A stretch of 60,255 nt of DNA from Candidatus Faecimonas intestinavium. GTDB taxonomy: Bacteria > Bacillota_I > Bacilli_A > RF39 > UBA660. Every line of letters begins with the position of its first letter. The stretch's first letter is position 1. The notes under the pieces were generated by a model that saw only the letters and a list, made by a program, of their open reading frames with translations, searched no databases and was not told the origin of the DNA. Below, in pieces: positions 10,953 to 42,150 of the stretch. Made by a program: the position numbers and the translations under genes. Where the stretch lies: NCBI GenBank assembly GCA_018716045.1, contig DVKL01000079.1, forward strand, positions 1 through 60,255. The letters are read 5' to 3'.

Positions 10953-11332
10953 GGGGCTGACACGGTTTCGACGGGAATAGTAGAGCATAGATGGCAAGTC
11001 GAATGTCCACGTCACGGGCACAAAAAAATAAACGCAAACAAAATTAAAAATGCAGTTGCTAACATGTTTGGTGGAAACCAAGCTGTAGCATTTGCCTAAT
11101 AATATAAAGGCCTGCGCTTTCTTTTATTTCTTACCTAGGAAATAATCGAAGGTTCATATTTTATAGGTTATAGCTATTTTCTTCCCAGAAAATAGAAAGA
11201 ATTAAAGGGATAATATATTATCTTGGTCGTTAACTACTTGGATAGTATATGAATGAAATTAGTTAACTAAACTTGTAGAAGTTTATGTAGCTCTATTTTC
11301 GGACAGGAGTTCGATTCTCCTCAGCTCCACCA
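10953..11332 (+). ncRNA. ssrA: tmRNA
   Basis: The 5' end is GGGGCUGACACGGUUUCGACGGG. The 3' tRNA-like end is GGACAGGAGUUCGAUUCUCCUCAGCUCCACCA. The internal tag frame 11034-11099 reads ANKIKNAVANMFGGNQAVAFA followed by TAA TAA. Confidence 0.93.
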
Positions 11333-11423
11333 GATTGATAATTGCTCGAACTGAGTTATATATAGAGGACTTGTCAAAAGTTCTTTTTTATGTTATTATG
11401 AATATGTCAAGGAAACTTGCATA

Positions 11424-11468
11424 AAATAAAAAAGAGGAACATTCGATTCCGAAAGCGAATGTCGCCTC
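11424..11468 (-). terminator. Intrinsic terminator of the small hydrophobic-peptide transcript
   Basis: Minus-strand RNA forms GAGGCGACAUUCG-loop-CGAAUGUUCCUC followed by UUUUUUAUUUUAU. The plus strand has no U-run after the same hairpin. Confidence 0.6.
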
Positions 11469-11510
11469 TAATAAAATTATGGTCGACACTCAATCAGAGA
11501 TGAAAGAGTG

Positions 11511-11603
11511 TCATATTTTTATTGCTATTACCAATAAGGTAAGGAGTAATAAAATGATAGCAATGTATCGAAGGACTTTTATAATAAAAGTTCTTTTCTT
11601 CAT
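11511..11603 (-). CDS. 30-aa hydrophobic peptide, candidate type I toxin
   Basis: Below the ORF-track size cut-off. The peptide is MKKRTFIIKVLRYIAIILLLLTLLVIAIKI with TGA stop. SD is AAAGGAGGG, 6 nt before the ATG. An upstream CCUCC (11636-11632) can pair with the SD. The unit has its own -35/-10 (TTGTTT-17-TATAAT, 11695-11667) and its own terminator. Confidence 0.5.
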   Translation of the reverse strand: MKKRTFIIKVLRYIAIILLLLTLLVIAIKI

Positions 11604-11747
11604 TTTTATCCCTCCTTTCTTTCTCAAGATTGGAGGACGACACCCACATCAAATGTTCCTGTTAAAATTATATAATAAATGGATTCATAAAACAATCGAA
11701 CAAGAAATGTTTTTGATAAATTTTCGAAAATGTATATTATAATTTGA

Positions 11748-11878
11748 ATAGTGATTGCTTCCTATATTAAATTGTTAATAAGTTGTAGATAACTTTCCCA
11801 ATGGCACCATAAAAAAAGTCGTTCACAAAGCTGAACTTGATATATAAGACCAATCAAAGTCGATTGGTCTTTATTTTT
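11748..11878 (+). ncRNA. Candidate small RNA (promoter-to-terminator unit without a credible ORF)
   Basis: Possible promoter TTGATA (11713-11718), 16-nt spacer, TATTAT (11735-11740). Plus-strand-specific terminator GACCAAUC-AAAGUC-GAUUGGUC followed by UUUAUUUUUAU (11848-11878). The only internal ATG opens a 3-codon ORF. Confidence 0.3.
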
Positions 11879-12111
11879 ATTTACAAAACACCATGATTTC
11901 TTCTATTTACAGCTATAAAAAAGAATATCAAAAATAAACTATACTATGACTATAAAATGAGAAAAATGAAAGACTAAAAGTCATAAAAACCGAAAATTTA
12001 ATATGGGTAATCTACATTGGAATTATTATTCTAAGTTGGTATGCAAACAGTAAAGAAAAACACTTTATACTTTATAAAGATAATAAAAGCAAAAAAGAAT
12101 ATCAAAAATTA

Positions 12112-12330
12112 ATGATTCTAATATTCTCTATCCTAGTAATTGCCTATTATTATTTTGCAAAAGATAGTCTAGAAGATTATCAAAAGTTAACACCTTTCGA
12201 CAGTAAAAAGAAAAGAAATCTCACTACTGCATCTCTAATAGCCTCTTTATTTATTTTGGTAAGTGGGCTAATTCTCTTAGGAATAGCCATAGAAGATGAT
12301 GATATTGATATAGAAATAGCCTTCAATTAA
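12112..12330 (+). CDS. Small membrane protein; the reading frame is open upstream to 11956 without a canonical start
   Basis: The 72-aa ORF has two TM helices. The same frame stays open for another 52 codons upstream and encodes a further TM helix (LIWVIYIGIIILSWY), but contains no ATG, GTG or TTG there. Confidence 0.4.
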   Translation: MILIFSILVIAYYYFAKDSLEDYQKLTPFDSKKKRNLTTASLIASLFILVSGLILLGIAIEDDDIDIEIAFN

Positions 12331-12403
12331 TACCATTAATCAATCTAATTGCTTTCTTTACAAAAAAGCTATATAATATACCACAACCTAAAGGAGAAAT
12401 AAT

Positions 12404-12850
12404 ATGAAAAAAATAAGCAATCTAAATATTCCCAAAGTAATTATTAAAAAGAAAGAAGCAAAAAAAGTATTCGGAAACTGGCTAGGAAAAACGATACCGC
12501 AAAATGAAATAGCAACAAAATTAGGATTTCTATTATATCAAACAGGTATTCCAAATACAGAAACATGTATTTTAGAACAAAACAAAGAAAATGAATTACA
12601 ATTTAATTGTCGTCTAAAAAAGCAAAAAAGAAATATCGGCATATCACTAATATTTGAAGATGTAGAAAACTTTGGAGACTTAATTATCTCAACAAAAGAA
12701 GAAATAAGAACTTATGAATATCATAAGCAAGAAAGCAAACTATTATTAAGAAACAGAAAGAAAATAAATGAATTAATAAAACCAAGTGAACAAGCACAAC
12801 TCCAAAAGCCATTGATAAAGCAGTATTCTAACCCTACTGGACAAAATTAA
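12404..12850 (+). CDS. Hypothetical Lys-rich protein
   Basis: 148-aa ORF with SD AAAGGAG 8 nt upstream. No recognisable motif. Confidence 0.5.
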   Translation: MKKISNLNIPKVIIKKKEAKKVFGNWLGKTIPQNEIATKLGFLLYQTGIPNTETCILEQNKENELQFNCRLKKQKRNIGISLIFEDVENFGDLIISTKEEIRTYEYHKQESKLLLRNRKKINELIKPSEQAQLQKPLIKQYSNPTGQN

Positions 12851-12857
12851 ATATTAG

Positions 12858-12866
12858 TGATATAAT
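12858..12866 (+). promoter_or_regulatory. Extended -10 promoter element (TGATATAAT) in front of the Thr-rich leader ORF
   Basis: TG-A-TATAAT at 12858-12866. The same 9-mer recurs at 13023-13031 and at 25669-25677 (femAB promoter). Confidence 0.45.
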
Positions 12867-12894
12867 ACAAGTACTTTTTGAAAGGGAGATAATT

Positions 12895-12951
12895 ATGAAA
12901 AACAATCAAACGACAACTACAACATTAAAAATTAAATCAACGAAAATTTGA
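12895..12951 (+). CDS. 18-aa leader peptide with five consecutive Thr codons
   Basis: The ORF reads MKNNQTTTTTLKIKSTKI with TGA stop. SD GGGAG lies 6 nt upstream. The Thr codons ACG ACA ACT ACA ACA occupy 12910-12924. Confidence 0.55.
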   Translation: MKNNQTTTTTLKIKSTKI

Positions 12952-12981
12952 TTGTTTTAGTTATGAAAATATATAAATTAT

Positions 12982-13011
12982 GACTATTACAATCAAGTAA
13001 TAGTCTTTTTT
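12982..13011 (+). terminator. Intrinsic terminator (segment 3:4 of the proposed attenuator)
   Basis: GACUAUUAC-AAUCAA-GUAAUAGUC (perfect 9 bp) followed by UUUUUU. Confidence 0.75.
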
Positions 13012-13039
13012 ATTTAAATAAATGATATAATAAATATAA

Positions 13040-13240
13040 ATACAAAAATATAGGATACGACAATTAAACATTTATTTCAAAGAGAGTTATCATATGGTGA
13101 AAGATAATAAATAAAATTAATTGCCACTACCTATTAGTTGGACCAGAAATGGATTCCCCGAATAACGGTTATAAAAATAAAGAAAACGAAAGGATGGTAC
13201 CGTGCTATATGCACTCCTAAGGTATCATCTTTTTTGTTTT
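13040..13240 (+). promoter_or_regulatory. T-box leader, probable Thr specifier (ACU)
   Basis: Stem I elements AGAGAG (13081) and GGUGAAAG (13096). Candidate specifier ACU-A at 13126-13129. T-box sequence AAAGGAUGGUACCGUGC at 13189. Terminator GAUGGUACC...GGUAUCAUC followed by UUUUUU, ending near 13236. Extended -10 TGATATAAT at 13023-13031. Confidence 0.8.
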
Positions 13241-13318
13241 AAAGGAGATGATAATATGACGGAAAGTGAAACGATTTACTCCCATTCAAAAAGAAAATAA
13301 AAGAAAGAAGGAATTTTT

Positions 13319-14857
13319 ATGATAAATAAAGAAAGCGCTGAATTACTAAAACAAGTAATTCACAACAATTACAAAAATATAAAATATGAAAATATAAATG
13401 CTAATGAAAAAGAATTCTATTATGAATTTAAAATAGAAGAAAAAATAAGTGAAAATGATTTTGAAAAATTAGAAAAAGAAATGAAAAGCCTAAAAAAAGA
13501 TACTTTTGTCAAATTAATAAGAATCAGTGGTGTCTATCTAGACAGTAACAGCAACAATGAAATGATTACAAGAATAACAGGAAAAGGCTTTAATAGCAAA
13601 GAAGAACTATCTGAGTATAACAAATTTGTAGAAGAAGCGAAAGAAAGAGATCATAGAAAAATTGGTCAAGACTTAGATCTATTTTGTTTTTCAGACTATG
13701 TAGGGCCAGGATTACCACTATATACTCCAAGAGGTACAATCGTAAAAGATGAACTACAAAAAGAAATAGAACGAGTTTGTAGAAAATATGGATTCGAAAA
13801 AGTAAGCTGCCCTTCGCTAGCCGACATATCGCTATTCGAAACTTCAGGACATGCAACAAAATTTAATGATGAATTATTTAGAGTGTCCTCTCCAAAAGGC
13901 CATAAGTTTGTCTTAAAACCCGTACAATGTCCACATCATACTCAAATATATGCCTCTAAAATTAGAAGTTACAAAGAATTACCAATTAGATACATGGAGT
14001 CAGATAAACAGTATCGTGCCGAATTACAAGGTGCTGTTGGTGGATTATCTAGAGTATACGCAATTACTGTAGAAGATGGACATTCATTCTGTAGAATAAG
14101 CCAAGTAAAAGAAGAAGTAAAAAATATGTGCAATCTAATTAAAGAATTTTATACAAGAATGGGTCTATGGAACAACAACTGGGTATCACTATCTGTAAGA
14201 GACAAAAATCACCCAGAAAAATATATTGGCAGTAAAGAAGATTGGAACTTATGTGAACAAATGCTTCAAGAAGTATCAGACGAACTTGGATTAAATGCCA
14301 AAAGATGTGAAGGAGAAGCTGCCCTATATGGTCCAAAACTAGACTTCATGTTTGAAGATGCTCTAGGTAGAGAAATTCAAATACCAACTGTACAATTAGA
14401 CTTCTCTACTCCAAAAAGATTTGAACTATTTTATATTAATGAGTATGGAGAAAAAGAAACTCCCGTTATGGTTCATAGAGCAGTATTAGGTTCTTATGAA
14501 AGATTTTTAGTACTCCTTTTAGAACAAACAAAAGGAGTACTTCCTCTATGGCTATCACCAGTACAAGTAAATATCGTGCCGGTAAATATGAAATACCATG
14601 ACGAATATTGTAAAGAATTAAAACAAAAATTTATAGAAGAAGAAATTCGCGTCAACTACGATACTGAAGAAATCAGTATGAATAAAAAAATAAGAAATAG
14701 CAATATAATGAAAAATCCATATACAATAATTATTGGAGATAAAGAGCGAGATAACAATTTAATTAGTTATCGTAAATACGGGAGCGAAAAAACTATTTCC
14801 ATGAATATAGAAGAATTCATAAATCAACTAAAAAAAGAAAGTAGAGAAAGGAAATGA
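13319..14857 (+). CDS. thrS: Threonyl-tRNA synthetase, short form lacking the TGS domain and the editing motifs
   Basis: Class II core motifs are present: ERDHRKIGQDLDLF, FRVS..KPVQCPHH, HRAVLGSYERF. An anticodon-binding domain is also present. Only 109 aa precede RDHRK. A Thr T-box lies upstream. Confidence 0.9.
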   Translation: MINKESAELLKQVIHNNYKNIKYENINANEKEFYYEFKIEEKISENDFEKLEKEMKSLKKDTFVKLIRISGVYLDSNSNNEMITRITGKGFNSKEELSEYNKFVEEAKERDHRKIGQDLDLFCFSDYVGPGLPLYTPRGTIVKDELQKEIERVCRKYGFEKVSCPSLADISLFETSGHATKFNDELFRVSSPKGHKFVLKPVQCPHHTQIYASKIRSYKELPIRYMESDKQYRAELQGAVGGLSRVYAITVEDGHSFCRISQVKEEVKNMCNLIKEFYTRMGLWNNNWVSLSVRDKNHPEKYIGSKEDWNLCEQMLQEVSDELGLNAKRCEGEAALYGPKLDFMFEDALGREIQIPTVQLDFSTPKRFELFYINEYGEKETPVMVHRAVLGSYERFLVLLLEQTKGVLPLWLSPVQVNIVPVNMKYHDEYCKELKQKFIEEEIRVNYDTEEISMNKKIRNSNIMKNPYTIIIGDKERDNNLISYRKYGSEKTISMNIEEFINQLKKESRERK

Positions 14858-41999: not shown

Positions 42000-42150
42000 A
42001 CACCTCCTTTATTATTTAGGGATGCCATAAAAAAGATTCTCTACACAGACGCAAGAGAACCTTTTCCTATTCACTTAAGATTAAGTCCTCGGTAGGATTT
42101 ATTTTTACACCTACTGTCTATGGCACCTACAAATTGTCTTTATTATATCC
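42000..42150 (-). promoter_or_regulatory. Probable ribosomal protein L10 leader (autoregulatory structured 5' UTR)
   Basis: A ~150-nt untranslated gap between rplA and rplJ contains paired segments GACAGUAGGUG ... CCUACCGAGG. This is the location expected for the Firmicute L10 leader. Confidence 0.4.

Follow-up and report, generated by a model that had tools for sequence, protein, structure and literature searches.

In the 60,255-nt stretch of DNA scanned here (the window; contig DVKL01000079.1 of Candidatus Faecimonas intestinavium), thrS, the gene for threonyl-tRNA synthetase (ThrRS), is preceded by an element at positions 12838-13011 of the forward strand that is very probably a ribosome-mediated attenuator, sensing threonyl-tRNA and controlling read-through from a promoter, P1, into thrS. 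An earlier reading of the same sequence (the original prediction) had proposed control of the kind known from the trp and thr operons, and this is supported by the conservation of the leader before thrS, the pattern of its threonine codons, covariation in the terminator and constrained folding. Ribosome stalling, coupling of transcription to translation, the use of a second promoter, P2, and the response in vivo are inferred.

With the ThrRS protein as the query and one genome per species, we obtained 80 thrS loci at 68-96% identity (173 relatives were found). All 80 loci come from uncultured gut metagenome-assembled genomes (MAGs) labelled Bacilli, Mycoplasmatota, Tenericutes or 'Mycoplasma sp. 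CAG:776/877', which we take to be members of the GTDB order RF39. Reduced genomes and many auxotrophies have been described for RF39 (PMC6784871). The 70 distinct leader regions upstream of thrS were aligned with MAFFT (alignment A1).

Anatomy of the proposed attenuator

The element is made up of the following features.

12838-12866, forward strand: promoter P1, with a -35 sequence TGGACA (12838-12843), a 17-nt spacer and an extended -10 sequence TGATATAAT (12858-12866).
12874-12888, forward strand: 5' untranslated region (5' UTR) CUUUUUGAAAGGGAG, containing the Shine-Dalgarno sequence (SD) GGGAG (12884-12888); its columns are nearly invariant in A1.
12895-12951, forward strand: leader open reading frame (ORF) of 18 codons, MKNNQTTTTTLKIKSTKI, with its stop codon TGA (12949-12951) inside segment 2; a homologous ORF is found in 70 distinct relatives.
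12901-12910, forward strand: segment 1 (AACAAUCAAA), putative anti-antiterminator, the exact reverse complement of segment 2 at 12947-12956.
12910-12924, forward strand: run of five threonine codons (ACG ACA ACT ACA ACA); a sixth threonine codon lies at 12940-12942.
12935-12940, forward strand: segment 1b (AAUCAA), predicted from the RNAalifold consensus to form a local hairpin with UUGAUU (12948-12953), which is followed by an invariant GUUUUA.
12946-12966, forward strand: segment 2 (core UUGAUUGU, 12948-12955) and the inner 5' strand of the predicted antiterminator, in invariant or near-invariant columns.
12978-12998, forward strand: segment 3, the 3' strand of the predicted antiterminator, overlapping the terminator in its 5' arm and loop.
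12982-13011, forward strand: intrinsic terminator, with the stem 12982-12990/12997-13005, the loop AAUCAA and U6 (13006-13011), -10.8 kcal/mol.

When checked against the sequence, the promoter, the SD, the 18-codon ORF, the five-threonine run, segments 1 to 4 and the terminator were each found where the original prediction had placed them. The -35 sequence of P1 is an addition to that prediction. P1 is the top sigma-70 match within 11300-13500, with 11 of 12 consensus positions plus the TG, and its transcript would start near 12873. The SD lies 6 nt upstream of the ATG at 12895. The probability of finding at least six threonine codons among 18 by chance is 1.6e-4 at the threonine frequency of the window (4.9%). 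The location of the leader stop codon within segment 2 was also confirmed. A reading of TGA as a sense codon (code 4), which would shift this stop, was ruled out; under code 11, ORFs of the size of rpoB and rpoC (1210 and 1239 aa) are uninterrupted, and TGA is therefore a true stop.

The complementarity of segments 1 and 2 is perfect, as first read, and their helix can be extended to 18 bp (12893-12910 with 12947-12966), in which case it covers the AUG, as in the minimum free energy fold of the free leader. The proposed pairing between 12948-12961 and 12983-12996 (8+4 bp) is likewise correct, and the antiterminator is now predicted to be longer (10+9 bp, 12946-12966 with 12978-12998, -15.6 kcal/mol). 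A terminator scan recovered the stem with its T6; across the scanned region, three terminator-like sites were observed against 0.5 expected. The pairing scheme of the original prediction gains one element, segment 1b. The hairpin of segment 1b with segment 2 (-2.2 kcal/mol in the window) is a candidate pause hairpin or second anti-antiterminator. A single UUGAUU could pair with any of three AAUCAA copies, one on either side of the threonine run and one in the terminator loop. The composite AATCAA..TTGRTTGTTTTR has a single occurrence in the 60-kb window and none in 100 shuffles, and the fold of the leader has a z-score of -2.6 relative to shuffles. The attenuator elements at these coordinates are confirmed, and they are not due to chance.

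In constrained folds, a possible small hairpin (CUUUU/GGGAG around GAAA) was seen over the leader SD in the 5' UTR (12874-12888). This hairpin may serve as a 5' stabilizer or in the control of initiation. The 5' UTR CUUUUUGAAAGGGAG is retained even in two relatives, L035 and L071, in which the leader ORF is deleted. The sequence UUCAUUGU is a designed mutant counterpart of the segment 2 core.

Conservation of the leader upstream of thrS

The segment 2 motif was found upstream of thrS in 75 of the 80 loci, which yielded 70 distinct full-length leaders; the loci without it are mostly truncated by the contig end, with L035 and L071 as exceptions. In about 50 of the 80 loci, a short ORF that starts with ATG and has at least three consecutive threonine codons occupies the same position upstream of thrS. 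The consensus peptide of the family is MLNNQLTTTTYTTTLKSIxxIDCFSIA. The SD and the ATG are conserved across the 70 aligned leaders (L030 has TTG), and P1 recurs as TTGACA-17-TGnTATAAT, always equally far from the leader. Upstream of the leader, different loci have different genes, and the gene downstream is constantly thrS.

A pattern scan of metagenomes returned 120 hits; the pattern was too loose, with about 80 chance matches in unrelated DNA, and only hits with an SD and an ORF were counted. About 37 of them are true leaders (SD plus a threonine-rich ORF). Among the 35 contigs that have enough downstream DNA, thrS follows the leader in 34, and four others are too short downstream. On contig L091 (2620-3824), a typical P1-leader-terminator unit (MLNNQVTITTKTKKLKSIRYIGCFSVA) is directly followed by a gene for a Zeta_toxin-family P-loop protein and by one for a CtpA-like S41 protease, in place of thrS and the second upstream ORF described below (uORF2).

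Conservation of the RNA segments

Most clades read segment 2 (AUUGRUUGUUUUAG) as I-D-C-F; it is read as Y/I-stop, with the TGA inside it, in the clade of the window and four others, and as N-W-L-F-stop in a third group. The serine in segment 1b is always encoded by TCA. The substitutions tolerated in segments 2 and 1b are A-to-G transitions only, which preserve pairing with U. That segment 2 is maintained in three reading frames, together with the invariant TCA in segment 1b, indicates that conservation acts on the RNA.

Helix pairing and covariation in A1 were compared with shuffles. For the terminator (3:4), 99.2% of the cells are paired and compensatory double changes occur in eight of the nine pairs; none of 500 shuffles reached any of these measures. 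Our own automatic terminator finder was wrong or blank at about 15 loci, A/U pairs running into the U tract, and the statement on the terminator is based on the alignment and on pair counts in its place. In the antiterminator (2:3), 88.7% of the cells are paired, one pair occurring as AU in 53 leaders, as GU in 13 and as GC in four; the score was reached by 4 of 500 shuffles. Pairing in helix 1:2 amounts to 92.7% of the cells, compared with 25-58% in slid registers, and all six pairs of helix 1b:2 are kept in 70 of 70 leaders, with G-U-compatible changes only. In L050, segment 2 has become UUGGUUGU jointly with a change of segment 3 to ACAACCAA. As far as the alignment goes, the terminator is proven by covariation, whereas the two helices that compete for segment 2 are suggested by strict conservation. 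Segment 1 ends at the first threonine codon, a geometry that suits its being covered by a ribosome stalled on the threonine codons.

Threonine codons of the leader

Threonine accounts for 21.5% of the codons of the 70 leaders, against 4.9% in the genes of the window, with a median of six threonine codons per leader of about 25 codons; runs of three to nine are present in 48 of the 70. The AC of these codons is kept in A1, and the third base varies. The rare codon ACG makes up 22% of the leader threonine codons, as opposed to 5% in genes.

Isoleucine is also raised in the 70 leader peptides (13.6% against 7.8%) and is often interleaved with threonine (ITIT, TTITT), a pattern that resembles the threonine/isoleucine mix of Escherichia coli thrL. 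Some of the isoleucine codons may be decayed threonine codons, ATH being one transition away from ACH.

Ribosome position and folding of the leader

To model the ribosome, a footprint was masked that spanned -15 to +12 nt relative to the codon in the A site. For the free leader of the window, the probability of the terminator was 0.76, and the state combining helix 1:2 with the terminator (-19.5 kcal/mol) is nearly isoenergetic with the antiterminator state (-18.6 kcal/mol). With the A site on any of the threonine codons 6-10, the probability of the antiterminator was 1.00; with the A site on the stop codon, the probability of the terminator was 1.00. Constrained folding of the window sequence thus gave the outcome that the original prediction had anticipated for ribosomes at the two positions.

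The 70 leaders were also folded as transcripts cut just before segment 4, the point at which the choice between the helices would be made; this gave a clearer outcome than equilibrium folding of the full-length leaders. In the absence of a ribosome, segment 2 was predicted to be mostly paired upstream in 49 of the 70. When a ribosome was placed on a threonine codon, segment 2 paired with segment 3 in 56 of the 70 if only the footprint was masked, and in 67 of the 70 if everything 5' of the leading edge was masked. In each of the 70 leaders, the stop codon is positioned between -7 and +29 nt relative to the first nucleotide of segment 2; a terminating ribosome would therefore always cover at least part of this segment.

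Arrangement of the proposed attenuator, the T-box and thrS

Downstream of the attenuator, the window contains the following features.

13023-13031, forward strand: candidate internal promoter P2, an extended -10 sequence TGATATAAT with a presumed promoter function.
13036-13235, forward strand: threonine T-box leader (match to RF00230 at 13036-13221), with the specifier ACU at 13126-13128 and the T-box sequence AGGAUGGUACCGUG at 13191-13204.
13256-13300, forward strand: uORF2, MTESETIYSHSKRK, 14 codons, with the SD GGAG (13244-13247), ending 18 nt before the thrS ATG.
13319-14857, forward strand: thrS, encoding ThrRS (512 aa; Pfam tRNA-synt_2b and HGTP_anticodon), the regulated gene.

The T-box and the second copy of TGATATAAT, both part of the original prediction, are present. 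The T-box begins 25 nt downstream of the attenuator. Its match to RF00230 covers the full length of the model at 56.5 bits (E 2.3e-11), below the gathering score of 93; the T-boxes of relatives score 55-71 bits, and the specifier context UUACUACCUA (ACU followed by A) is conserved. The T-box terminator (13193-13201/13221-13229 plus a U run) ends at about 13235. Pfam recognized the class II core and the anticodon-binding domain of ThrRS but, within the first 186 residues, neither a TGS nor a tRNA_SAD (editing) domain, and the protein is equally short (512 aa) in all 80 relatives.

The sequence TGnTATAAT is present at the P2 site in 36 of 75 loci. P2 is absent from 12 loci that have a T-box (L002, L003, L005, L006, L024, L038, L044, L054, L059, L064, L067 and L080); there, the T-box begins about 20 nt past the U tract of the attenuator, as in L003 (2716-2901, 71 bits in Rfam). 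These 12 relatives have no promoter after the attenuator and ahead of the T-box, so that the two switches must lie in series. In the window, thrS is probably fed by both P1, through the attenuator and the T-box, and P2, through the T-box only.

The two elements have been lost separately. The T-box is missing from about 20 loci, where the attenuator remains as the sole terminator ahead of thrS; in one of them, L017, the upstream region gave no Rfam hit at E up to 1. Several T-box-less loci (L047, L055, L062 and L074-L076) also have no promoter between the attenuator and thrS, which leaves the leader-peptide attenuator as the only terminator-based control. The T-box-less loci fall at up to eight separate places on a neighbor-joining tree of ThrRS, beside sisters with both elements. 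Conversely, the attenuator has been lost and the T-box kept in three loci. The leader ORF and attenuator are cleanly deleted in L035 (-380 to -260) and L071 (-340 to -250 relative to thrS), P1 and the 5' UTR being fused to the T-box; in L043 (-470 to -300), the leader start codon is AAG and the terminator is deleted, with segment 2 still in place. That P1 is joined straight to the T-box in L035 and L071 identifies P1 as a thrS promoter. Among the 80 loci, none with enough sequence has lost both the T-box and the attenuator.

Proposed mechanism and alternative explanations

We propose that the P1 transcript begins near 12873 and that translation of the 18-codon leader, by a ribosome bound at the strong SD, proceeds as the region is being transcribed. 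Segment 2 would pair with one of three partners: segment 1, on the 5' side of the threonine run, segment 1b, on its 3' side, or segment 3. When threonyl-tRNA is plentiful, the ribosome would reach the stop codon in or next to segment 2 and cover this segment; segment 3 would then pair with segment 4, and transcription would end at the U tract and yield an RNA of about 138 nt. When threonyl-tRNA is scarce, the ribosome would stall on the threonine codons and cover segment 1, so that segment 2 pairs with the emerging segment 3, no terminator forms and the polymerase continues. In the window and in most relatives, it would next meet the threonine T-box, which tests for uncharged tRNA-Thr, then uORF2 and finally thrS.

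Several observations weigh against this mechanism. One subclade (L053, L055, L058, L062, L065, L069, L074, L076, L052, L059, L064 and L015) has only one to three scattered threonine codons in the leader. When full-length leaders were folded at equilibrium with segment 1 masked, the antiterminator failed to win in about half of the 70; the complete terminator is often too stable at equilibrium, and the model therefore needs co-transcriptional kinetics. The original prediction had called for an ortholog alignment to be checked for the threonine run and for compensatory changes in the three helices; the threonine run and the pairings proved to be conserved, but compensatory changes are clear for the terminator only. 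Column-based covariation in helix 1:2 gave no signal beyond shuffles in A1, where some sequences (L018, L028, L070 and L050) have segment 1 displaced by 3 nt, so that MAFFT columns understate the pairing. Helix 1b:2 likewise showed no covariation beyond shuffles, and part of the conservation of segment 1 could be coding (N-N-Q). On contig L091, the leader stands before a Zeta_toxin-family gene and not thrS, an arrangement that could be a rearrangement or a co-option. Lastly, transcripts independent of the attenuator could arise from P2 in the window, and likewise in about half of the loci.

A rival explanation is a general translation-coupled attenuator, which would report whether or how fast the leader is translated and not the level of threonyl-tRNA, the threonine run being incidental or a means of tuning. 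The subclade with one to three threonine codons retains the RNA switch, conservation is stricter for the structural segments than for the exact number of threonine codons, and in equilibrium folds termination often depends on a ribosome at the stop codon, whatever the identity of the codons. Against this, threonine is fourfold over background at the same position of the ORF across clades, with variable third positions and over-use of ACG, the element is tied almost only to thrS, and the adjacent T-box has a threonine specifier. We consider general coupling an unlikely account of the element. The attenuator could also be operated by a protein or a tRNA, through ThrRS bound to the leader of its gene, as for thrS of E. 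coli, or through a degenerate T-box, the ORF then being irrelevant. Genes for aminoacyl-tRNA synthetases (aaRS) are often autoregulated or controlled by T-boxes, and the RNA segments are very strongly conserved; yet comparison of 12300-13035 with Rfam gave no match even at E up to 10, the SD, the ATG and the in-frame threonine run are conserved, and footprint masks suffice to flip the fold. Such a switch seems most improbable to us. As for operator mimicry of the E. coli thrS kind, the terminator loop AAUCAA lacks a threonine anticodon-like NGU triplet, and this candidate was rejected.

The original prediction itself carried the caveat that the element might be a free-standing gene for a small peptide or a small RNA lying beside thrS, with thrS transcribed only via P2 and the T-box. 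Promoter, ORF and terminator do form a full unit, followed by the second extended -10 sequence at 13023-13031, and terminated attenuator RNAs are known to act in trans elsewhere, an example being rnTrpL (PMC6614838). Evidence against the independence of the two units comes from the 12 relatives without P2, whose T-box begins about 20 nt past the terminator, from L047, L055, L062 and L074-L076, which have no promoter between the terminator and thrS, and from L035 and L071, in which the leader is deleted and P1 is kept, driving the T-box. Moreover, the frame of the C-terminal part of the peptide is not conserved, and the genes upstream differ where thrS downstream is constant. A free-standing gene is, in our judgment, very unlikely, and we retain the ribosome-mediated, threonine-sensing attenuator as the best explanation.

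Relation to known attenuators

A search of 12300-13500 with cmscan at E up to 10 gave only the T-box and a chance microRNA hit; the attenuator does not match the Rfam family Thr_leader (RF00506), or any other curated family. The E. coli thr operon leader thrL (RF00506) is similar in having a short threonine-rich peptide (there also rich in isoleucine), mutually exclusive terminator and antiterminator, and read-through upon stalling at threonine codons. It differs in that it is proteobacterial and controls the biosynthetic genes thrABC and not thrS, and we found no homology of sequence or structure between the two. Three copies of AAUCAA vying for one UUGAUU are a property of the present element and not of E. 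coli thrL.

The original prediction regarded leader-peptide attenuation as classically enterobacterial. It is not confined to enterobacteria; such attenuators have already been described in Firmicutes and at other aaRS genes (PMC2965389, PMC5794164, PMC1262725, PMC8079986). Attenuation of an aaRS gene at cognate codons is found in E. coli pheST, with the pheM leader, and in the predicted trpS and leuS attenuators (PMC1262725) and alaS and thrS leader peptides (PMC8079986) of Streptomyces. In S. lividans, the alaS case is accompanied by a weak thrL-thrS case, in which thrL has two threonine codons and no clear terminator (PMC8079986). These systems belong to other phyla, and none has been reported to be stacked on a T-box. 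Within the Firmicutes, a histidine leader precedes hisS paralogues and hisZ in bacilli (PMC2965389), and a leucine-rich attenuator precedes the ilv-leu operon of Staphylococcus aureus (PMC5794164). These are classical attenuators, at sites where other Firmicutes use T-boxes; they concern other amino acids and genes, and in them the peptide replaces the T-box, whereas the present leader usually coexists with one. For the tenericutes, Korolev et al. (2016) noted that there were no reliable data on attenuation (PMC4833913). In the literature that we searched, which did not cover the aaRS survey of Lopatovskaya et al. (2010; Mol Biol 44:128), we found neither a threonine leader at thrS in Bacillota nor a leader-peptide attenuator in series with a T-box.

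The T-box of the Bacillus subtilis type at thrS (RF00230) shares with the attenuator the gene, the signal (charging of tRNA-Thr) and the output (an intrinsic terminator). It binds uncharged tRNA directly and without translation, whereas the attenuator has no T-box features and would rely on a translated ORF.

Tandem T-boxes, or two riboswitches in series, place two terminator switches on one leader, both of which must permit read-through. The two switches here are of different mechanistic classes, one ribosome-mediated and the other tRNA-binding, and would sense the same amino acid. Classical attenuation itself is textbook knowledge; the novelty lies in the family, in the host lineage and in the stacking. 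An aaRS gene of the Bacillota would be under leader-peptide control and wired together with a T-box for the same amino acid, placing two mechanistically different sensors on one transcript. All combinations occur among related species (both elements, the attenuator only, and the T-box only), and the clade offers a comparative handle on the redundancy and exchange of ribosome-based and tRNA-binding regulation. A switch between the two had earlier been inferred only between distant phyla (PMC2965389). The element is compact and well defined, at about 140 nt, and could be tested in heterologous systems; for RF39-like MAGs, we recommend that its conserved short ORF carry the annotation of a leader peptide.

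A second threonine-rich ORF before thrS

uORF2 is conserved in 61 distinct loci, T-box-less loci included, as MTETExDTIxS... Threonine accounts for 19.8% of its codons, and of these 53% are ACG and 27% ACC, the two rarest threonine codons in the genes of the window (5% each). uORF2 is longer in the T-box-less clade L053-L076, with six to eight threonine codons. Depending on the locus, it stops 12-36 nt short of the thrS ATG or overlaps the ATG, its end lying at or over the thrS SD. RNAalifold predicted no conserved secondary structure in the uORF2 region; SD/anti-SD pairing (GGAGA/UCUCC) and pairing with the thrS SD were inspected by eye and were unconvincing. We suspect that uORF2 may be a third threonine-sensing layer, acting on the translation of thrS.

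If so, thrS would be guarded by up to three independent sensors of threonyl-tRNA, the attenuator, the ACU T-box and the ACG/ACC uORF, the last perhaps gating translation; they would be modular, partly redundant and lost in differing combinations. We put this forward tentatively, as a plausible arrangement that falls somewhat short of being the probable one. Were it true, it would be a natural experiment on the choice between ribosome-based and tRNA-binding sensing, in which readouts of charged tRNA, by the ribosome, and of uncharged tRNA, by the T-box, are combined, possibly for different isoacceptors.

The 3' arm of the T-box terminator, UAUCAUC (13223-13229), is complementary to GAUGAUA (13247-13253), which spans from the last base of the uORF2 SD to just before the AUG and is conserved in T-box-less loci too. 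In relatives, the region of this SD (AGGAGAUGGUA) resembles the T-box motif AGGAUGGUAC. At gathering thresholds, the only Rfam hits in the window are a transfer-messenger RNA on the forward strand (10953-11332; tag ANKIKNAVANMFGGNQAVAFA) and a ribosomal protein L10 leader on the reverse strand (42020-42141).

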